Origin: an uncultured Oscillospiraceae bacterium | Lineage (GTDB): Bacteria > Bacillota > Clostridia > Christensenellales > Aristaeellaceae | Length of the DNA: 41,160 nt | NCBI GenBank assembly: GCA_964620835.1 | Contig: CAZUIA010000002.1 | Location: forward strand, 1-41,160 | Direction of reading: 5' to 3' | In this document: one piece after another, positions 19,182-28,342 of the stretch | Layout: each line of letters begins with the position of its first letter | How positions within the stretch are numbered: position 1 is the first letter of the stretch | The notes under the pieces: model-generated | The model's input: the letters and a program-made list of their open reading frames with translations, nothing else | The model's database searches: none | Told to the model about the DNA's origin: nothing | Position numbers and translations under genes: made by a program

Positions 19182-19667
19182 TCATTGCAACACGACTTCA
19201 GCGCCCCGCTGTTCCTTTACATGCAGCGAAGTCAGGTTCAGCCGCAAATAGGTTGCGCCCAGCTCTTCATATTCCTCCAAAACGCCGATTGCCTCAACCC
19301 ATGCGTTTTCCTCCGGACTTGCAATCCCGACATCCTCGCTCCACGTGACCTCAAAGCCCACGGTTCCGTCGTTTCCGCAGCATCCCGGCCCATATCGAAA
19401 CACAATGCGGACGGTTGAACCGGTCGGCTCATAGGGGAAGGACGCAAACATCCCCTCCAGCTTGATTGTTTTCCCGGCGTATTCCTTCGGGTTCAAGTAA
19501 ACGTCGTTCACTTGGGCGACAAACATCTTCTCCTTGATTTCCAGATCATATTCGTTGGCATCCGCGGCCAATTCCGCGACAGCCTCCGATTTGTATGGAT
19601 CCTGGCTGCATGCCGAAAGGGACAGGGCAAGCGACAGCAGCACGATCACAGACAACCATCTTTTCAT
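19182..19667 (-). CDS. Lipoprotein resembling the C-terminal domain of DUF1980/YcgQ (TIGR03943-type) proteins, with a GCC motif
   Basis: I trimmed the ORF to ATG 19667, which overlaps the znuB stop as ATGA. It has the lipobox LSLALSLSAC. The sequence YLNPKEYAGKTIKLEGMF......VRIVFRYGPGCCGNDGTVGFEV parallels B. subtilis YcgQ as I remember it (Y.NPEKYKGKTIEFTGFV...ARFGMTCCVADASVYG). Confidence 0.65.
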   Translation of the reverse strand: MKRWLSVIVLLSLALSLSACSQDPYKSEAVAELAADANEYDLEIKEKMFVAQVNDVYLNPKEYAGKTIKLEGMFASFPYEPTGSTVRIVFRYGPGCCGNDGTVGFEVTWSEDVGIASPEENAWVEAIGVLEEYEELGATYLRLNLTSLHVKEQRGAEVVLQ

Positions 19668-20491
19668 ACAATCCCCCTCTTTTTCAGGATACCGGCGCCG
19701 GAAAACAGCAAAAACGCCAGGAGGCTGACCCCCACAATGCTTGCCCCTGTGGGCAGCGCGGCCATATAGGAAATGACAAGCCCCGCAAAAAAGCAGACAA
19801 CGGACACGACGGCCGAACACAAAATGACCGAACGGAAGGTTTTGCATACCCGCATGCTGATCAGCGCCGGGAAAATGATCAGGCTGGAGATGAGCAGCGC
19901 GCCCATCATGCGCATACCGAGCACGATCGTCAGCGCGGTCAGCAAGGCGATCAGCATGGTATACGCGCCCGCGTTCGTGCCCGTGGCCTGCGCAAAATTC
20001 TCGTCAAAGGTCACGGCGAAGATCTTACTGTAAAAAAGGACGAACAGCACCAGCACGACAGCGCACAGCGCGATGCTCAGGTACACATCGTTTTTGCTCA
20101 TCGCCAGGATGCTGCCGAACATATAGTTGCACACATCGGTATTCATGCCGGTTGATATGGAGACGATGATGACGCCGATTGCCAACGAGCCTGTGGAAAT
20201 GAGGGCGATCGCGGCGTCCCCTTTGATTTTGCTGCTTTCCCGAATGCGCAGCAAGAGAAAAGCCGCAAGCATCACAACCGGGATGGAAACGGTAAGCGGA
20301 GAGAGGCCCAGCGCGGTCGCCAGGGCCATGGAGCCAAAGCCGACATGGGAAAGACCGTCGCCGATCATCGAGTATCTTTTCAGAACGAGGCTGACCCCCA
20401 GCAGCGCGGCGCAAAGGGATACCAGCAATCCGACAATCAGCGCCCTCGTCAGGAACGTGTAGGAGAACATTTCGATCAAGGTCTGGATCAT
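19664..20491 (-). CDS. znuB: Zinc/manganese ABC transporter permease (ABC-3 family)
   Basis: The 275-aa polytopic membrane protein has FLTRALIVGLLVSL, MIGDGLSHVGFG and other motifs typical of ZnuB/TroCD-type permeases. It overlaps znuC by 4 nt. Confidence 0.9.
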   Translation of the reverse strand: MIQTLIEMFSYTFLTRALIVGLLVSLCAALLGVSLVLKRYSMIGDGLSHVGFGSMALATALGLSPLTVSIPVVMLAAFLLLRIRESSKIKGDAAIALISTGSLAIGVIIVSISTGMNTDVCNYMFGSILAMSKNDVYLSIALCAVVLVLFVLFYSKIFAVTFDENFAQATGTNAGAYTMLIALLTALTIVLGMRMMGALLISSLIIFPALISMRVCKTFRSVILCSAVVSVVCFFAGLVISYMAALPTGASIVGVSLLAFLLFSGAGILKKRGIV

Positions 20492-21195
20492 TCGTGCCGC
20501 CCTCCCAGAAAGTACTTCCCCAGTTCGGTGTTGCGGTACGCTTCGGCGGAGCCGAAGAAAACCTGCTTGTTCTGCAGGTGCAGGATATGGCTGGCGTAGG
20601 AAACCGCGCTGTGAACGTCATGGGATACCATCACGACCGTGATGCCCATTTCACGGTTGATGCGGTCGATCAGCGCGTACAGCTCCTGCGTGACGACCGG
20701 GTCAAGCCCGGCCACCGGCTCATCCAGCAGCAGCAGCTTTTTCGTTGCGCACAGCGCCCTGGCCAGCAACACGCGCTGCTGCTGGCCGCCGGACAGCTCC
20801 CGATAGCAGCGGTTTCGCAAAACGGTAAGGCCCAGCTGTTCCATGTGGCTGAAGGCGGTTTGCCTGTCTTCCTTGGCATAGAACGGGCGGATGCCCCGGC
20901 TGTTGAGCCGGCCGGACAGAACCACCTCGTACACGCTGGCTGGAAAATCCTTTTGCGCGGCGGTTTGCTGGGGAAGATAGCCGATTTCATTGGGTGAAAG
21001 GCCGTCGCCCATCTCCACCGAACCCTGACAGGGCGCGATCAATCTCAGCAGTCCTTTCACCAGCGTGCTTTTCCCCGAGCCATTTTCACCGACAACGCAT
21101 AAATACATCCCGCTTTCGATGGTAAAGTTCAGCCCTTCCACCACGCAGTTTCCGTCATAGGCAAAAGCGGCATCCTTGTATGCAATCAACGCCAT
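20488..21195 (-). CDS. znuC: Zinc ABC transporter ATP-binding protein
   Basis: It has Walker A GENGSGKST, the signature LSGGQQQRVLLARAL, Walker B LLLLDEP and the YLPQ motif typical of ZnuC. A GAGGAGGA SD precedes ATG 21195. Confidence 0.9.
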   Translation of the reverse strand: MALIAYKDAAFAYDGNCVVEGLNFTIESGMYLCVVGENGSGKSTLVKGLLRLIAPCQGSVEMGDGLSPNEIGYLPQQTAAQKDFPASVYEVVLSGRLNSRGIRPFYAKEDRQTAFSHMEQLGLTVLRNRCYRELSGGQQQRVLLARALCATKKLLLLDEPVAGLDPVVTQELYALIDRINREMGITVVMVSHDVHSAVSYASHILHLQNKQVFFGSAEAYRNTELGKYFLGGRHE

Positions 21196-21332: not shown

Positions 21333-21908
21333 TCACTCGGAAGCGAAAAGGCAATCCAGGCACCAGCACCATGTGCAAGGGGCAAGGCCCTGCGCCTGTG
21401 CGCTTGACAGCGTTGTCTGCCGCGCCCCCTGAGGCATGCGGTCGCATGACGGCGAGCTGTGGTAGATCCCGTCCGCCACCCAGGCGGGCGTTTCGTCCTT
21501 TGGCGGGCTGTGGGAGGACAGCTTTGACCCGCTCACTTTGGCAGTGGCCCGCTGCGCCGCCAGGCGCTTCTTTTCTTCCTCCAACGCCTCCAAATATGCT
21601 TCCTCGCCGATTTCATCCAGCAGGTCGCTGCGAATGAACCCCTGTTTGCCGGCGTACTCCACCTGGATCCAAAGGGTTCCGGCTTCGTCCTCTTCTTCGC
21701 CCAGCCATTTCATGACCGTGCCCGTGATCGGAACTTTGACGACGACCTTCGCCTTTGCGTTGGGGTGCTTTCTCACATTGACGCCCTTGATATTGGTCTG
21801 CCCATATCGGGCGGCGGACTCATCCTCTGTTTTATACGCGCTTGCCCCGGCAACGGATGCGGCGATGCACAGGCACAAAAACAGCAAGCATACCGCTTTA
21901 CACCGCAT
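21333..21908 (-). CDS. Secreted SH3b-domain protein with a C-terminal YH-x5-C...PCxxC (Ada-type zinc-motif-like) tail
   Basis: I prefer the start at ATG 21908 (AAAGGA SD 7 nt upstream); ATG 21926 is possible. It has the signal peptide MRCKAVCLLFLCLCIAASVAGASA and an SH3-like segment GVNVRKHPNAKAKVVVKVPITGTVMKWLGEEEDEAGTLWIQVEYAGKQGFIRSDLL. The tail reads YHSSPSCDRM...AQAQGLAPCTWCWCLDC. Confidence 0.7.
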   Translation of the reverse strand: MRCKAVCLLFLCLCIAASVAGASAYKTEDESAARYGQTNIKGVNVRKHPNAKAKVVVKVPITGTVMKWLGEEEDEAGTLWIQVEYAGKQGFIRSDLLDEIGEEAYLEALEEEKKRLAAQRATAKVSGSKLSSHSPPKDETPAWVADGIYHSSPSCDRMPQGARQTTLSSAQAQGLAPCTWCWCLDCLFASE

Positions 21909-21995: not shown

Positions 21996-24050
21996 CTATT
22001 GCAGCGCCTGTTTGAGGCTTTCGACGTTGCGCCACATCAGCTCCAGGTAACCGGTTCCGCTTTCAAAGTCGCTTCTGGACACGTTGTGGACAGAGTGCAT
22101 TTCCAGCTTCGTCGCGTTCGTGCTCGCCGCGATCGTATCCGCGATTTTGCCGTTTGAAAACTCAATCGTGAACACGACGGGAAGGTTTTCCTCCTTGGTT
22201 TTGTCGATCAGAAACGCGATGGTGGCGGCGCTGGCCTCTGTGTCGGTCGAGCAGCCGGTGAAGGCCGCAAAATAGTCCAGACCGTAGTCTTTGGCCAGGT
22301 AGCGGAACGGAAAGCGGTCGCCAAACAGAATGGTCCTGCGGCTGGAGTCCTTCACGACAGCCTCAAACGCCAGATCCAGGGCGTCGAGCTCCACCAGGTA
22401 TGCCATTGCGTTCTCGCGGTAGGTCTGCGCGTTCGCCGGGTCAAGCGATGCCAGCGCCTCCGTCAGTTGCGCGACGATCAGCTTGGCGTTTTTCGGGGAA
22501 GTCCATACGTGCTCGTCCAGCTCCGCCTCGTGATCGTGATCATGGTCGTGGTCTTCCTCGTCATGGCTGTGGCTGTGCCCCAGCATGTCCTCGGCAATCG
22601 CTTCCCCGTCCATATCGGCCCGGAAGAAGGTCGGCCAGTTGTCCATCTCCTCCAGCAGCGCCGCAAAGCCGTCGTTGCCCATGTAGATATGGAAGTGGTG
22701 AAGGTCCTCCGTAGGCTGGATCATGTGATCGCTGAACTGGATGAACTTCGGCGCGCCGTTGGTCTCGCCGACCGCCTCAAACAGATACCGGACGCCTTTG
22801 CCGCCGCTTTCATACGTCAGAATCTCAAAGCCCCTGTACTCGTACGCCGCCTTTTGCACGGTATCGCCCATGTAATACGAAATGGTTTCGCCGTCAATCA
22901 CCACGCGGTCGTACTCGGTCTCATAGCCCGTCGTATAATACTGCTTGTATTCCTCGGCCGTTTTGCTGTCGTCCTGCTCGGCCTTTTCGACGAACACATG
23001 ATCCAGCGTGCCATCCAGAACATAGGGGTACCCGGACTGCCAATCGCCCTGCCAGTCGGCCAGCGTGGGGCGGTCCTGCACGTCGCTGTCCTCAAAGGTT
23101 TCGCTGTGGCTGTGGCCGTGATCATGGCCCACCATGGTTTCCCTGACCTGATCCGCGGTGGCGGACGCATCGAAATACATCGTGCTCCAGTTTTCTACGT
23201 TCATCAGCTCTTCCACGTTTTCGCCATACCGAAAATGCGTATGGGCTACGCCTTCCTCGCCGTGGTCATCCCCCGCTTCATTGCCGGTGCCATGGTCGTT
23301 AAAGAGCAGATAGGTCGGCATGTTCGGCGTGCCGTCCGCCAGCTTCAGGATATACCACGCGGAGGTTTCGGTGGGCTCAAAGCCGGCGTATGCGTACTGG
23401 GCCGTGATCCCGTTCAAGGTCACCTGTCCGTTGTGGACGGAGTAGGTGTCATAGTCCGACGCCCAGCGCGTCTTGTAGGTTTCGAGCATTTCCTCAACGG
23501 AAACCTCATTTTCCTCGGCCTTTGTTTTCACCCATTCGTCCAGGGTGCCATCCAGCAAATAGGGCATGCCGGTTTTCCAGTCGCCGTCAAAGTCGGTGAT
23601 GGGGCGATCCTTGGGGGGAAGCGCCTCCTCGGACTCCTCATGGTCATGGGAGTGCTCCATGCCTTCGACGATTTCCTCTTCCACCGTGTCCACCATGTCG
23701 ACCAGCGCGAGAATCTTCATATTCTCTGTGTCCATGGATTCAAGGATACGATCGACCCACACGTCCGATTCCCCGCCCACATGCAGGAATAGATCGCTGT
23801 TTTGAATGGCGATGATGTCTCGGGGGCTGGGTTCAAAGGAATGGCTTTCCGCGCCCGGGGACAGGAGCATCGTCAATTCCACGTTGTCTCCGGCGATCTG
23901 CCGAATGAAATCATACGGCGGGAAAATTGTCGTGACCACGCGCAGCTTCCCGTCCTCGGCCAAAGCTCCGGAAGTCTCCGTAATCAGGCCGCCCAGGAGC
24001 GTAGCGGTAAAAAGGCAGGCAATTGCTGCCAGTGCAAATATTCGTTTCAT
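21996..24050 (-). CDS. znuA: Zinc ABC transporter substrate-binding protein with two ZinT/YodA-like domains inserted in the His-rich loop (684 aa)
   Basis: The N lobe reads GKLRVVTTIFPPYDFIRQIAG...SPGAESHSFEPSP. The C lobe reads DEHVWTSPKNAKLI...FGDRFPFRYLAKDYGL...FTIEF. Between them lie two ZinT-like modules and three His-rich linkers. An ACGGAGGAA SD precedes ATG 24050. Confidence 0.9.
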   Translation of the reverse strand: MKRIFALAAIACLFTATLLGGLITETSGALAEDGKLRVVTTIFPPYDFIRQIAGDNVELTMLLSPGAESHSFEPSPRDIIAIQNSDLFLHVGGESDVWVDRILESMDTENMKILALVDMVDTVEEEIVEGMEHSHDHEESEEALPPKDRPITDFDGDWKTGMPYLLDGTLDEWVKTKAEENEVSVEEMLETYKTRWASDYDTYSVHNGQVTLNGITAQYAYAGFEPTETSAWYILKLADGTPNMPTYLLFNDHGTGNEAGDDHGEEGVAHTHFRYGENVEELMNVENWSTMYFDASATADQVRETMVGHDHGHSHSETFEDSDVQDRPTLADWQGDWQSGYPYVLDGTLDHVFVEKAEQDDSKTAEEYKQYYTTGYETEYDRVVIDGETISYYMGDTVQKAAYEYRGFEILTYESGGKGVRYLFEAVGETNGAPKFIQFSDHMIQPTEDLHHFHIYMGNDGFAALLEEMDNWPTFFRADMDGEAIAEDMLGHSHSHDEEDHDHDHDHEAELDEHVWTSPKNAKLIVAQLTEALASLDPANAQTYRENAMAYLVELDALDLAFEAVVKDSSRRTILFGDRFPFRYLAKDYGLDYFAAFTGCSTDTEASAATIAFLIDKTKEENLPVVFTIEFSNGKIADTIAASTNATKLEMHSVHNVSRSDFESGTGYLELMWRNVESLKQALQ

Positions 24051-24110: not shown

Positions 24111-24413
24111 TCAAGGGTTCATGCGCACCTTGAGCGTAATCAGCGTCGGATGCCCGGCGAATCGGACGCCCCGCGCCGCACGTTTTGAAAACTGGCTGAA
24201 AAACAAGAAGGGAAGGGCTGTGAAAAGCATGACATACAGCTGGCGAAGCAGCGCCTGAAACGCCCACACGAAGCAGCAAACCGCGCATTCGGCCCTCTCC
24301 TGGGGATGCTCGTGATGATGAAGGGCGGGAACTGCCAGCACAAGCAGTGTCAGCGCGAGGAATACCACAAAAAGCACCCTGGCGGCTTGCCGCTCTTTTC
24401 GTGCGGTGCGCAT
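24111..24413 (-). CDS. Small membrane protein (100 aa) with an HHHEH...CxxCC motif; first gene of the zinc locus
   Basis: I trimmed the ORF to ATG 24413 (AAGGGGA SD 7 nt upstream): MRTARKERQAARVLFVVFLALTLLVLAVPALHHHEHPQERAECAVCCFVWAF...PTLITLKVRMNP. It has two hydrophobic segments flanking the His/Cys cluster. I recognise no family. Confidence 0.6.
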   Translation of the reverse strand: MRTARKERQAARVLFVVFLALTLLVLAVPALHHHEHPQERAECAVCCFVWAFQALLRQLYVMLFTALPFLFFSQFSKRAARGVRFAGHPTLITLKVRMNP

Positions 24414-24494: not shown

Positions 24495-24513
24495 GCCGTC
24501 CGGCCGGTTCTTC

Positions 24514-24559
24514 AGATTCCTTTAGAAACGGGCCGGTTTCTTAAGAAATAAAAAGAAAC
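24514..24559. promoter_or_regulatory. Cluster of operator-like motifs: AGATTCCTTTAGAAAC (24514-24529), perfect 12-bp palindrome TTTCTTAAGAAA (24537-24548), extra half-site AGAAAC (24554-24559)
   Basis: Read directly from the sequence. The cluster lies between the two divergent promoters (zinc locus and response regulator). It is related to the motif at 21309-21324. Confidence 0.45.
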
Positions 24560-24569
24560 GCCGCATCCG

Positions 24570-24599
24570 GTGACAGGCCTTGGGGACGTGCGGTATAAT
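24570..24599 (+). promoter_or_regulatory. Candidate promoter of the two-component operon (GTGACA-18-TATAAT); geometry suggests a leaderless mRNA
   Basis: TATAAT ends 7 nt before the A of ATG 24607, and no SD lies between them. Confidence 0.4.
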
Positions 24600-24606
24600 A
24601 CGGCAT

Positions 24607-25302
24607 ATGGAAAAGAAGGCTGTAATCCTGGCTGTGGACGATGAGGCGGACATCCGGGAGGTGCTGCGGCTCCTGCTGGAAGCGGACGGATACGCGGTGT
24701 GCGAGGCGTCAAGCGGCGATGAGGCGCTCCGTAAGCTGACCGAGGATGTGAGCCTTGTCGTTTTGGATGTGGTGATGCCGGGGGAAAGCGGCTATGAGGT
24801 GTGCGAGCGACTGCGCGAGCGCAGCAACGTGCCGGTTCTCTTTTTGACCGCCAAATCACAGGAACAGGACAAGGTGCGGGGGCTTCAATGCGGGGGGGAT
24901 GATTACTTGACCAAGCCGTTTTCCGCCGCCGAGCTTGGCGCGCGCGTCGCAGCGCTGCTGCGGCGCTATCAGGTGTATCAGGGAAGCGCGGATGTGCAAA
25001 GCGGCCGTTTTGTCCGTCAATCGGTCTGTATTGATTTTGCGTCCGGCACGGTGGCGCGCAATGAAAAGCAAGTCCTATTGACCGACCTGGAATACCGCCT
25101 GCTCGCATACCTGGCCAAGCACGCGGGGGAAACGATCGACGCGCAGCGGCTGTATGAAGCCGTATGGGGTGAAACGTACTTGCTCAGCTCCGCCAGCACG
25201 ATCATGGTGCACATCCGCAACCTGCGAAAAAAGCTGGAGGACGATCCGCAACAGCCGGCGCTGATCAAAACCGTCTGGGGGAAAGGATACCGCATTGATT
25301 AA
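24607..25302 (+). CDS. OmpR-family response regulator
   Basis: The receiver domain shows MEKKAVILAVDDE, VVLDVVMPGESG and LTKPF. The winged-helix output shows LTDLEYRLLAYLAKH, IMVHIRNLRKKLE and IKTVWGKGYRI. The TTG at 24580 in the track has no SD. Confidence 0.9.
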   Translation: MEKKAVILAVDDEADIREVLRLLLEADGYAVCEASSGDEALRKLTEDVSLVVLDVVMPGESGYEVCERLRERSNVPVLFLTAKSQEQDKVRGLQCGGDDYLTKPFSAAELGARVAALLRRYQVYQGSADVQSGRFVRQSVCIDFASGTVARNEKQVLLTDLEYRLLAYLAKHAGETIDAQRLYEAVWGETYLLSSASTIMVHIRNLRKKLEDDPQQPALIKTVWGKGYRID

Positions 25303-26602
25303 AACCTACATCCGCAGCAAGCTAAGCCGCCAGTTATCCGCCGTGATCCTGGCCGCGTTTGTCTTTGCCGGCATATTGTATTTGACGCTGGCTTCCGTGA
25401 TCGAAACAACCGTTTGCACGTATTATGACGGGCATCCCGAAATCGTGCAGCGGATGGCTGCGGAAAAAGTGCGCGCATTGCAGGCTATGGCCGACAGGGA
25501 AGCCGTCGCTTCCACGGATAGGGCGGCGCTCTCCACGTGGGTGGGCAGGAATGCGCTGATGATTTTGCAAGTGTTTCGCAATGGCCGGCTGATCTTCGAT
25601 TCCACGCTGGAGACCTCCTCTGCGCTGCACTCGCATTTGCAGGATCATGCGCCCCTCGCGCACCAGGCTACCCAAACCATTGTCTTTGCCGACGGACCCG
25701 CGCAGGTATCCATTGCGGTATTCCCTGAACACGCGCTGGTGGATTTGCTGAGCAAGGGATTGCTGCTACTCTGTGTGTTTTTATTCCTGGGTGTCATCTT
25801 ATGGAGCGTCCGAAGGAAGATACAGTATTTGGTGAAGTTAGAGCAGGAGGTGCTGGCCATCGCCGGGGGGGACCTAGAGTTGCCGCTCACGCACAGGGGG
25901 ACGGATGAGCTGGCCATGCTGTCGGAATGTATCGACGAGATGCGTCAATCGATGATCGAGCGCATCCGTCAGGAGGAGTCCCGCCAGCAGGAGCGGTACG
26001 AGTGGGTCGCTTCCATGTCGCACGACCTGCGAACGCCGTTGACGGCGCTCACAGGCTATCTGGAGGTCATGGCGCGTGGGGGCTTGTCCAATCCAAGCCG
26101 GGCCTATCTCCAAAAATGCTTGGAGAAAGCCTTCCGGCTGAAGGAAATGACAGACATGCTTTTTGCCAGCTTTACCTCCAGCGCGCCGCTTCTCGAAACG
26201 CTTATTCCGATGCCTGCAAATGAACTGATGCGTGCATTCATTCAGGAAGGGCTGACATACCTGCGGGAAAAAGGGTATGAGACGGAAATCCGCGGCGCAA
26301 CAGAAAACCATGACATCATGATTCAAAAGGCCGCGCTGCACCGCGTCTTTGACAATGTCTTTCAAAACATCGCAAAATACGCGTCCCCCCATGCTCCGGT
26401 GACCGTTGCATGGAACATGGAAAGCGATTCGCGCTTTTCGATCTTGATTCACAGCGGATTGAGGGGGACGGCGCTGTCGCACGGCAGCGGATTTGGCTTG
26501 ACGATCTGCTCGAATCTCATCCAAAACATGGGAGGGGATTTTCGCGCCCGCGCTTTTGACGGGGTGTTCGAGTATCGGATTGAGTTGAAGGCGCGCGCAT
26601 AA
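25295..26602 (+). CDS. Sensor histidine kinase (two TM segments, HAMP, HisKA, HATPase_c)
   Basis: It uses a TTG start after GAAAGGA and overlaps the regulator stop by 8 nt. It has the H-box SMSHDLRTPLTAL, the N-box FDNVFQNIAKY and the G-box GSGFGLTICSNL. Confidence 0.9.
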   Translation: MIKTYIRSKLSRQLSAVILAAFVFAGILYLTLASVIETTVCTYYDGHPEIVQRMAAEKVRALQAMADREAVASTDRAALSTWVGRNALMILQVFRNGRLIFDSTLETSSALHSHLQDHAPLAHQATQTIVFADGPAQVSIAVFPEHALVDLLSKGLLLLCVFLFLGVILWSVRRKIQYLVKLEQEVLAIAGGDLELPLTHRGTDELAMLSECIDEMRQSMIERIRQEESRQQERYEWVASMSHDLRTPLTALTGYLEVMARGGLSNPSRAYLQKCLEKAFRLKEMTDMLFASFTSSAPLLETLIPMPANELMRAFIQEGLTYLREKGYETEIRGATENHDIMIQKAALHRVFDNVFQNIAKYASPHAPVTVAWNMESDSRFSILIHSGLRGTALSHGSGFGLTICSNLIQNMGGDFRARAFDGVFEYRIELKARA

Positions 26603-27895: not shown

Positions 27896-28342
27896 ATGGA
27901 TCACACGTCCAAAATGCGGCGGGTCATTGACACCTGGTATGACGACTGGTTCGCGATGGATCGCCTCTATTATGAATGGGCGCGCCGGCGCGGGATCACC
28001 GGGACGATCCTTTTTACGCTGTACGCCATTCATGCCATTGGAAAGGCCTGCACGCCGGGCCAGATTGTCGAAAAGCTGGCGCTTTCCAAGCAGACGGTCA
28101 ACTCCACGCTGGATACCCTGGAGGCCCGGGGCTTTATTTCCCGCCAGCGCGATACCGTGGACCAGCGCAGCCGCATTGTCAGCCTGACGGACGAAGGGCG
28201 CGCGTACGCGGAGGAGCTCCTCGGCGCGCTGGACGATGCCGAGCAAGGGGCTTTTTCCGCGCTCGGCAACGACCTGCAAACGATGATCGACCTGAACCGA
28301 AAGCTCGTACAGGCCATGCGCCGGGAGCTTTCGGTGCGATAG
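27896..28342 (+). CDS. MarR-family transcriptional regulator
   Basis: A CAGGAGGTG SD is followed by ATG 27896. The winged-HTH pattern is PGQIVEKLALSKQTVNSTLDTLEARGFISRQRDTVDQRSRIVSLTDEG. Confidence 0.9.
   Translation: MDHTSKMRRVIDTWYDDWFAMDRLYYEWARRRGITGTILFTLYAIHAIGKACTPGQIVEKLALSKQTVNSTLDTLEARGFISRQRDTVDQRSRIVSLTDEGRAYAEELLGALDDAEQGAFSALGNDLQTMIDLNRKLVQAMRRELSVR

Follow-up and report, generated by a model that had tools for sequence, protein, structure and literature searches.

Two ZinT domains nested between the lobes of a ZnuA-type metal-binding protein from an uncultured Oscillospiraceae bacterium

Introduction

Proteins of the ZnuA and ZinT families cooperate in zinc acquisition in Escherichia coli and Salmonella, where ZnuA and free ZinT (YodA) are separate polypeptides that meet in the periplasm. 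Here we describe a protein that unites the two families in one chain, with two copies of ZinT. It is the 684-residue product of a gene at positions 21996-24050 (minus strand) of the window, by which we mean the whole stretch of DNA that we analysed: 41,160 nt of contig CAZUIA010000002.1 in assembly GCA_964620835.1, from an uncultured Oscillospiraceae bacterium. Both ZinT domains lie inside the fold of a cluster A-I substrate-binding protein (SBP), at the place where ZnuA-type proteins have a His-rich loop.

The best match to the whole protein in the PDB, which has no entry with the nested layout, is AdcA of Streptococcus pneumoniae and S. pyogenes (7JJ9; 4.7e-87; NCBIfam family NF033605). AdcA, too, combines in one covalent chain a cluster A-I SBP, there for zinc, and a ZinT-like lipocalin domain that bears a three-histidine (His3) site; it has a His-rich loop at the SBP cleft and serves an ATP-binding cassette (ABC) importer of the AdcCB/ZnuBC type. 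However, AdcA has a single ZinT domain, attached at the C terminus by an 11-residue linker, and keeps its His-rich loop (PMC7858048), whereas here two ZinT domains inside the SBP fold replace the loop. The AdcA order, with ZinT after a complete ZnuA-like domain, differs from the one here, where both ZinT domains precede the C lobe and the chain ends with it. In AdcA the loop (residues 120-136) is found where the ZnuA-like and ZinT-like domains meet and has been proposed as a zinc relay; the one domain that import cannot do without is the ZnuA-like one, with the ZinT-like domain auxiliary, and in Gram-negative species ZinT has not been seen to interact directly with its partner in vivo (PMC7858048). 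The closest solved core is that of YcdH, the ZnuA of Bacillus subtilis (PDB 2O1E), which is about 32% identical over the fused lobes and has its His-rich loop at the same position, but which has no ZinT insert, carries the canonical third His in a TQH motif and has Glu at position 4 of the metal site.

We read the protein as a zinc receptor of the ZnuABC/AdcABC type in which the loop consists of two tethered ZinT capture modules and three poly-His/acidic arms that would feed the core, and we put the probability of this reading at about 0.7. It rests on the sequence, a predicted model, the gene context and the precedent of AdcA.

Results

The ZnuA domain is split at a single point by two ZinT domains

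The open reading frame (ORF) is complete, with a GGAGG 8 nt 5' of its ATG, and its translation agrees with the 684 residues quoted in the first-pass annotation of the window. Searched whole against Pfam, the protein has two stretches of ZnuA (PF01297; 6.6e-74; 249 bits against a cut-off of 29), which together span the whole profile, and two of ZinT (PF09223; 4.2e-89). We also put four pieces of the protein through Pfam one by one. Taken alone, the N-terminal piece (amino acids (aa) 38-138) matched ZnuA profile positions 1-96 and the C-terminal piece (aa 512-682) matched positions 98-263 of 263, so the insert sits at one single break point in the ZnuA profile. Each of the two middle pieces matched ZinT above the cut-off of 27 bits: the piece aa 134-317 at aa 147-309 (2.3e-20; profile positions 16-181; 73.7 bits), and the piece aa 318-508 at aa 318-492 (7.1e-71; 238 bits). 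The insert between the N lobe and the C lobe is about 345 residues long, and the nucleotide interval first proposed for it, 22578-23612, is exactly aa 147-491. The first-pass annotation had described two tandem ZinT-like modules nested between ZnuA lobes, and the profile search bears this out with a significant ZinT match for each module within that interval. The parts of the protein, all on the minus strand, are as follows.

21996-24050 (-): the whole ORF (684 aa and a stop codon), for a metal-binding protein of cluster A-I in which two ZinT domains are nested
23958-24050 (-): N-terminal signal or anchor, aa 1-31 (MKR, hydrophobic core, ALA/ED), read from the sequence by eye
23661-23957 (-): ZnuA N lobe, aa 32-130 (Pfam positions 1-96), with ligand His70 (AESHSF), ending in the clade-invariant VEEEIVEGM
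23613-23660 (-): His-rich linker 1, aa 131-146, MEHSHDHEESEEALPP
23130-23612 (-): ZinT module 1, aa 147-307, diverged type, triad His252/His270/His272 (Pfam; alignment to Salmonella ZinT)
23100-23129 (-): His-rich linker 2, aa 308-317, GHDHGHSHSE
22581-23099 (-): ZinT module 2, aa 318-490, canonical type, triad His442/His452/His454 (Pfam; phmmer against PDB; Foldseek)
22527-22580 (-): His-rich linker 3, aa 491-508, GHSHSHDEEDHDHDHDHE, aligning with the His-rich loop of AdcA and YcdH
21999-22526 (-): ZnuA C lobe, aa 509-684 (Pfam positions 98-263; column counts), with His514 (DEHVW), G-D-R-F (Asp578, Arg579) and MHSVHN (His652, His655)

The motifs picked out earlier are all present (AESHSF at aa 67-72, FNDHG at 250-254, AHTHF at 269-273, FSDHM at 439-443, HHFHI at 451-455 and DEHVW at 512-516), as are the three His-rich linkers, which hold 14 of the protein's 29 histidines.

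When the two lobes were fused by way of the linker remnants, they aligned end to end in PDB searches with YcdH of B. subtilis (4e-46) and AdcA of S. pneumoniae (6e-44). These alignments place the insert at the usual position of the ZnuA His-rich loop, as had been proposed: the remnant of linker 3 overlies the His-rich loops of YcdH and AdcA, just before the D-x-H-x-W motif that bears the second ligand, and therefore the ZinT modules sit at the ZnuA-type loop. The loop that they replace begins beside the cleft and stops two residues before ligand His514. Free-standing ZinT has an N-terminal His-rich tail, and the first two linkers take the place of this tail. The earlier picture of three His-rich linkers bracketing the modules therefore needs a correction: all three exist, but only linker 3 resembles a remnant of the SBP loop.

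An assembly or frameshift artefact can be rejected, because a near-identical protein (P0001, 2 residues different) is encoded on four independent contigs from separate metagenomic samples, there are 20 further double-ZinT homologues, and GC content and GC content at third codon positions (GC3) are even over lobes and inserts. Slippage-prone DNA repeats behind the His linkers can also be set aside; we found just one (TCGTGA)n hexamer, of 3.8 copies, at 22528-22550, and nothing substantial.

Both modules retain the ZinT metal ligands

Module 2 is about 46% identical to the ZinT proteins of E. coli and Salmonella, with no significant gaps, including across the SDH and HFH motifs, and it matches PDB ZinT structures by phmmer at 1e-50. 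Module 1 is 25% identical to E. coli ZinT and 30% identical to module 2, and can be aligned over the full domain to Salmonella ZinT (PDB match, 7e-13). In the residue-level alignment its NDH and HTH motifs fall on the ZinT ligand histidines, so that His252/His270/His272 of module 1 and His442/His452/His454 of module 2 align to the E. coli/Salmonella triad, whose members have been named His167/176/178 (nomenclature quoted in PMC9175090). The characterisation of module 2 as close to E. coli ZinT and of module 1 as a diverged but ligand-keeping copy thus stands. Between its first and second ligands module 1 has an extra acidic/His segment of 8 residues, GNEAGDDHGEEG, which is conserved in this module type. 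Against the NCBIfam ZinT equivalog model (NF007639) the score of 263 bits is below the cut-off of 300; ZinT occurs here as part of a longer chain and not as a stand-alone periplasmic protein.

For a wider view of the triad we used a homologue search of 5.8 billion proteins, which gave 813 matches at E <= 1e-10, and examined the architecture of the best 120. The His triad is intact in all but two of the 143 ZinT modules in these 120 homologues. It is kept in both modules of 21 of 21 double-ZinT proteins and in all three modules of the two triple-ZinT proteins.

The predicted structure rebuilds one core around the insert

We modelled the protein with AlphaFold2 from a 62-sequence alignment whose first row was P0001 (its two differences from the window protein are both in linker 1). 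The mean predicted local distance difference test (pLDDT) score was 87.8, and values below 50 occurred only at aa 22-30, 135-142, 310-317 and 492-507, which are the end of the signal peptide and the three linkers. In Foldseek searches against the PDB, whole SBPs such as AztC (5w57) and MntC (3ujp) matched the model with template modelling (TM) scores of 0.81-0.84, in alignments that run over 656 columns and cross the insert; the two lobes therefore reassemble around the 345 residues, and the expectation that they superpose on a whole SBP holds in the model. A helix predicted at aa 538-567 fits the long rigid helix that joins the two alpha/beta lobes. In the model, then, the two lobes are predicted to form one cluster A-I core, with disordered linkers and confidently folded domains.

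ZinT structures, which are lipocalin-like beta-barrels, matched with TM scores of 0.88-0.91 and root-mean-square deviations (rmsd) of about 1.2 Å, the entry 1oej giving a TM score of 0.91, an rmsd of 1.3 Å and 46% identity. The 1oej match is to module 2; module 1 has the ZinT order of strands and helices in the model, with high pLDDT.

The core motifs depart from the canonical metal site

Apart from its insert, the protein had been described as an ordinary cluster-A metal-binding protein, and the question had been posed whether its lobes still form the canonical His3 site. This part of the description needs correction, for the whole clade: the third-ligand position is G-D-R-F and the fourth is usually His. 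The metal site of AdcA is His63/His140/His204/Glu279 (PMC7858048). Column counts over 295 non-identical cores gave the following equivalents.

AdcA His63: His70 here, kept in 294/295 cores
AdcA His140: His514 here, kept in 295/295
AdcA His204: G-D-R-F here, with Asp578 in 292/295 and Arg579 in 291/295
AdcA Glu279: His655 here, with His in 246/295 and Gln in 46/295

A second histidine beside His655, His652, is present in 217 of the cores. The motif GDRFPFRY (aa 576-583, approximately 22302-22325) is invariant clade-wide, in at least 591 species genomes, in place of the canonical third-ligand His motif. At the position of the AdcA Glu ligand the clade has L-H-x-x-H-N (aa 651-656, approximately 22083-22100), or D-x-x-Q in a minority that includes Faecalibacterium prausnitzii. 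The unusual core motif, GDRF together with HxxHN, marks this set of cluster A-I proteins, and we found no solved structure in the PDB for any member of the GDRFPFRY clade.

HMMER places His204 of AdcA and its YcdH counterpart on Arg579, and the corresponding His of AztC on Asp578. Anchoring the alignment on the preceding beta-strand would give Asp578 as the third-ligand position, gap-free. The likeliest core site is accordingly predicted to consist of three His and one Asp, the carboxylate and one imidazole having changed places between ligand loops 3 and 4: where AdcA has His204 and Glu279, this protein has Asp (or Arg) and His.

The protein would work like AdcA but is not an AdcA. It scores 362 bits against the AdcA model NF033605 (cut-off 700) and 77.9 bits against the ZnuA model NF007091 (cut-off 268); the cut-off of the AztC equivalog is likewise not reached, and every NCBIfam zinc equivalog is below its cut-off.

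The N terminus lacks a lipobox

AdcA is a lipoprotein, and the protein studied here had been called lipoprotein-like. We could not uphold this. Judged by eye, it has no L-x-[GA]-C lipobox; the sole N-terminal Cys, at position 12, lies inside the hydrophobic core, and the hydrophobic stretch is followed by an A-L-A/E-D site of the signal-peptidase-I type. Among its nine close double-ZinT relatives (P0002-P0010), five have no Cys in the N-terminal stretch shown (P0002, P0003, P0004, P0006 and P0007) and the others have a Cys but no lipobox motif; the stretches of these relatives end in AYA/, AFA/ or ALA/. L-x-G/A-C lipoboxes do occur in many single-insert relatives.

The gene lies in a cluster with ABC transporter genes

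The window also carries genes for PcrA, LigA and spore photoproduct lyase and has a GC content of about 62%; it is chromosomal DNA of a spore-forming member of the Clostridia. Around the SBP gene we annotated the following features.

24580-26602 (+): OmpR-type response regulator and histidine kinase, divergent from the SBP gene and syntenic with it in three relatives
24111-24413 (-): 100-aa membrane protein immediately upstream, with HHHEH...CxVCC and C-terminal LKVRMNP, recurring with nested-ZinT SBPs elsewhere
21333-21908 (-): secreted SH3_3 protein, 191 aa, with Cys-rich C terminus YHSxxxC...CxWCWCLDC, between the SBP and ATPase genes
20488-21195 (-): ABC transporter ATPase, ZnuC-like (Pfam ABC_tran, 1.1e-25)
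19664-20491 (-): ABC-3 family permease, ZnuB-like (Pfam ABC-3, 8.6e-59), its start overlapping the ATPase stop by 4 nt
19182-19667 (-): DUF1980_C/TIGR03943-like lipoprotein, 161 aa, with GPGCCG motif, last gene of the cluster

We compared this locus with those of five relatives from the double-ZinT subclade (L085-L089) and of F. prausnitzii (L005). A ZnuC gene and a ZnuB gene follow the SBP gene in two of them (L087 and L005). The small membrane protein is encoded directly upstream of the SBP in five (L005 5576-5941, L087 4647-4940, L088 3513-3803, L089 4612-4896 and L085 5604-5930). Members of its family, which ranges from Oscillospiraceae to F. prausnitzii, are 95-121 aa long and have an N-terminal transmembrane segment, a metal-like HxH...CxxC motif, a second transmembrane segment and the C terminus L-K-(V/T)-(R/K)-(L/M)-(N/S)-(P/D). 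The window member has no Pfam or NCBIfam match beyond a sub-threshold one to DUF2946 (E about 2).

The DUF1980_C lipoprotein recurs in three loci (L087 8612-9100, L088 6034-6495 and L005 9058-9630), even where the ABC genes are missing, and its YGPGCCG motif is conserved, with ACCQQG in F. prausnitzii. The SH3 protein recurs in two (L085 8345-9019 and L089 7137-7847), with a conserved C terminus, (V/I)YHSxxxC...(T/S)L(S/A)SAQAQG...C.(W/Y)CWCLDCL, whose Cys and His residues look like a zinc-binding motif. Orthologues of the two-component system lie beside the SBP gene in three (L086 3760-5773, L088 1324-3319 and L089 2344-4351); the window response regulator is 66% and the kinase 43% identical to the L086 counterparts, and the extracytoplasmic domain of the kinase has the invariant motifs DS..TSS.LH.H and F.DG.A.V...FPE. 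This two-component system may be a metal-sensing regulator that replaces Zur. A MarR-family gene at 27896-28342, considered as an AdcR-like regulator, was rejected, as we saw no AdcR-like His cluster in its sequence.

Between the two-component genes and the small upstream ORF, at 24505-24560, lies an imperfect inverted repeat (28 nt, 75% complementary) containing the palindrome TTTCTTAAGAAA, which could be an operator. We found no Rfam match to a riboswitch or other RNA in the whole window.

Function of the nested protein

The favoured reading is as follows. An extracytoplasmic receptor core of two alpha/beta lobes would dock on the ABC-3 permease and ATPase encoded downstream, with a core transport site predicted to comprise His70, His514, Asp578 and His655, and His652 nearby. 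In place of the short His-rich loop, two ZinT lipocalin-like domains, each with a putative His3 site of its own, would be carried on three disordered His/Asp/Glu linkers. Modules and linkers may act as tethered antennae that bind scarce Zn2+ less tightly and exchange it more quickly, concentrate it locally and deliver it within the same chain to the core site, which is the role thought to be played by free ZinT with the ZnuA loop and by the C-terminal ZinT domain of AdcA. The metal served is most probably zinc; the identity of core ligands 3 and 4, like the hand-over mechanism, is something that we infer.

Several observations weigh against this reading. The core is non-canonical: the third His is absent and the third position is Arg579 or Asp578 according to the alignment, so we can only infer the zinc specificity of the core. 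Some members of the clade, F. prausnitzii included, have Asp/Gln rather than His/His in the fourth-ligand region. The predicted TM score (pTM) is just 0.55, and with so low a value the model does not predict where the ZinT modules stand with respect to the cleft. No ABC-3 permease or ATPase gene is adjacent to the SBP gene in L086, L088 and L089. Finally, we found no Zur or AdcR gene or box nearby, and a tblastn search of the window with Fur-family queries was negative, although those queries were approximate, which makes this a weak result.

Because the core is non-canonical, one alternative is that it transports another metal (Mn, Fe or a broad range), that the ZinT modules recruit Ni, Co or Cd, and that "zinc" is a carried-over annotation. 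A carboxylate as third ligand (here probably Asp578) is a feature of Mn/Fe-type proteins, of which PsaA, MntC and YfeA have Glu there, and the Asp/Gln members at the fourth position and the sub-threshold scores against all zinc equivalogs point the same way. The ZinT-like domain of AdcA, moreover, binds Co and Ni too (PMC7858048). However, zinc systems are typified by ZinT domains and His-rich stretches, His occupies position 4 in 246 of the 295 cores, and in sequence searches Mn/Fe proteins rank behind four zinc proteins that match best, namely YcdH, AdcA, Synechocystis ZnuA and AztC. The zinc sites of AztC and TroA consist of three His and one Asp, the same composition as that predicted here. 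On balance we regard a metal other than zinc as unlikely.

Another alternative is that the protein acts less as a delivery receptor than as a sensor or co-sensor, outside the cell, that reports on zinc to the adjacent two-component system, or else as a means of buffering or storing zinc. The orthologous regulator and kinase pair stands divergently beside the SBP gene in the window and in L086, L088 and L089, the same three loci that lack adjacent transporter genes, and the sensor domain of the kinase has the invariant LHxH motif. Yet in the window, in L087 and in F. prausnitzii the SBP gene heads an operon with ZnuC- and ZnuB-like genes, its core lobes retain the full cluster A-I docking fold, and the two-component system is more simply explained as the regulator of the operon. 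A sensing or storage role therefore seems to us improbable.

That module 1 is a decayed duplicate that binds no metal and is a mere spacer, as its low identity to E. coli ZinT and to module 2 and its weaker PDB match might suggest, is hardly credible given its intact triad here and in all 21 double-ZinT proteins, the conserved His-containing insertion in its ligand loop, its high pLDDT throughout, and the use of its type as the sole ZinT of single-insert proteins such as P0051, P0108 and P0109.

Distribution and evolution of the insert

All of the best 120 homologues among the 813 matches have ZinT nested between the lobes: 97 have one module, 21 have two and 2 have three. Their source names include Oscillospiraceae, Ruminococcus, Clostridia, Synergistaceae, Treponema, Spirochaetaceae, [Clostridium] colinum and Lactovum. 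A scan for the clade motif GDRFPFRY in one genome per GTDB species matched at least 591 genomes; among the best 76 of these, 49 have no ZinT, 24 have one and two have two, the single-ZinT carriers including F. prausnitzii UT1, Treponema saccharophilum DSM 2985 and Ruminococcus flavefaciens. A HMMER search with the C lobe gave 797 representatives of 50% identity clusters at E <= 1e-30, and among the best 150 most are about 300-340 aa long, and a minority measure about 480-545 or 683-699 aa. Versions with a single ZinT greatly outnumber those with two. Plain clade members, without ZinT, have between VEEEIVEGM and (E)YDEHVW a segment that is most often poly-Glu and sometimes His/Asp-rich, at the same position as the insert.

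The single-ZinT SBPs of this clade (in F. prausnitzii UT1, T. saccharophilum DSM 2985, R. flavefaciens and [Clostridium] colinum) are uncharacterised. They share with the window protein the insertion point, the VEEEIVEGM...DEHVW flanks and operon partners that include the small upstream membrane protein, but they have one module and many are true lipoproteins, whereas the window protein has, upstream of its canonical module, a second one of another type.

The suggestion that the nested architecture had not been described was right in one respect. We found no description of ZinT nested in a ZnuA-type protein in the full-text literature searched, whose coverage leaves out most subscription journals; but in sequence databases, where such proteins are automatically annotated as ZnuA/ZinT/ZnuA, the layout is widespread. 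It is common in sequence databases, uncharacterised, and new to the literature searched and to the PDB.

We built a neighbour-joining tree from 295 core-lobe sequences (biased sampling, no support values) and mapped the insert onto it. On this tree the presence or absence of ZinT requires at least 30 changes, compared with about 100 when labels are shuffled, and the multi-copy state requires 9. The only module of the nearest single-insert proteins shares 60-65% identity with module 2 of the window protein, and the closest counterpart of module 1 (44%) is the only module of other single-insert proteins. A recent tandem duplication of ZinT can thus be rejected: the two modules are 30% identical, and each is closer to modules of other proteins. 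Module order is also permuted between homologues. Module 1 of P0026 resembles module 2 of P0032 (64%) and module 2 of P0026 resembles module 1 of P0032 (61%), an A-B order against B-A; likewise, modules 1 and 2 of P0047 resemble modules 3 and 2 of P0041, C-B against H-B-C. This permuted order suggests recombination or shuffling within the loop rather than simple tandem duplication, and the module types appear, from these comparisons, to be old and combinatorial. Judged by the changes on the tree, the module similarities and the permuted order together, the loop behaves as a slot in which ZinT modules have been gained, lost and reshuffled time and again. Since ZinT stands in the loop's own place in 0 to 3 copies, the pattern speaks for one shared function of loop and ZinT.

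A broader proposal, which we offer tentatively, is that in this clade of metal receptors from gut anaerobes the cleft-side loop is an evolutionary cassette slot, open to interchangeable elements for metal capture (poly-Glu or poly-His stretches, or ZinT modules of several ancient types, up to three at a time and in an order that differs between lineages), and that the double-ZinT receptor belongs to a hitherto unrecognised, Zur-less zinc circuit. The parts of such a circuit would be the metal-sensing two-component system, the small HxH/CxxC membrane protein, the Cys-rich SH3 wall protein and the DUF1980_C lipoprotein, and within it the non-lipidated multi-site receptor would be a long-reach zinc scavenger.

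The nested-ZinT proteins are natural single-chain constructs for work on intramolecular zinc transfer, its stoichiometry and its reach. The family occurs in abundant anaerobes of the gut, rumen and termite gut, such as F. prausnitzii, Ruminococcus and Treponema, and so bears on competition for zinc among commensals.

One further locus, in Anaerocolumna sp. (L025 6001-8766), gave a tblastn match of 2766 nt, and the only GDRFPF ORF found in it encodes a plain SBP of 361 aa; this locus may contain two adjacent paralogues or a longer multi-module gene.

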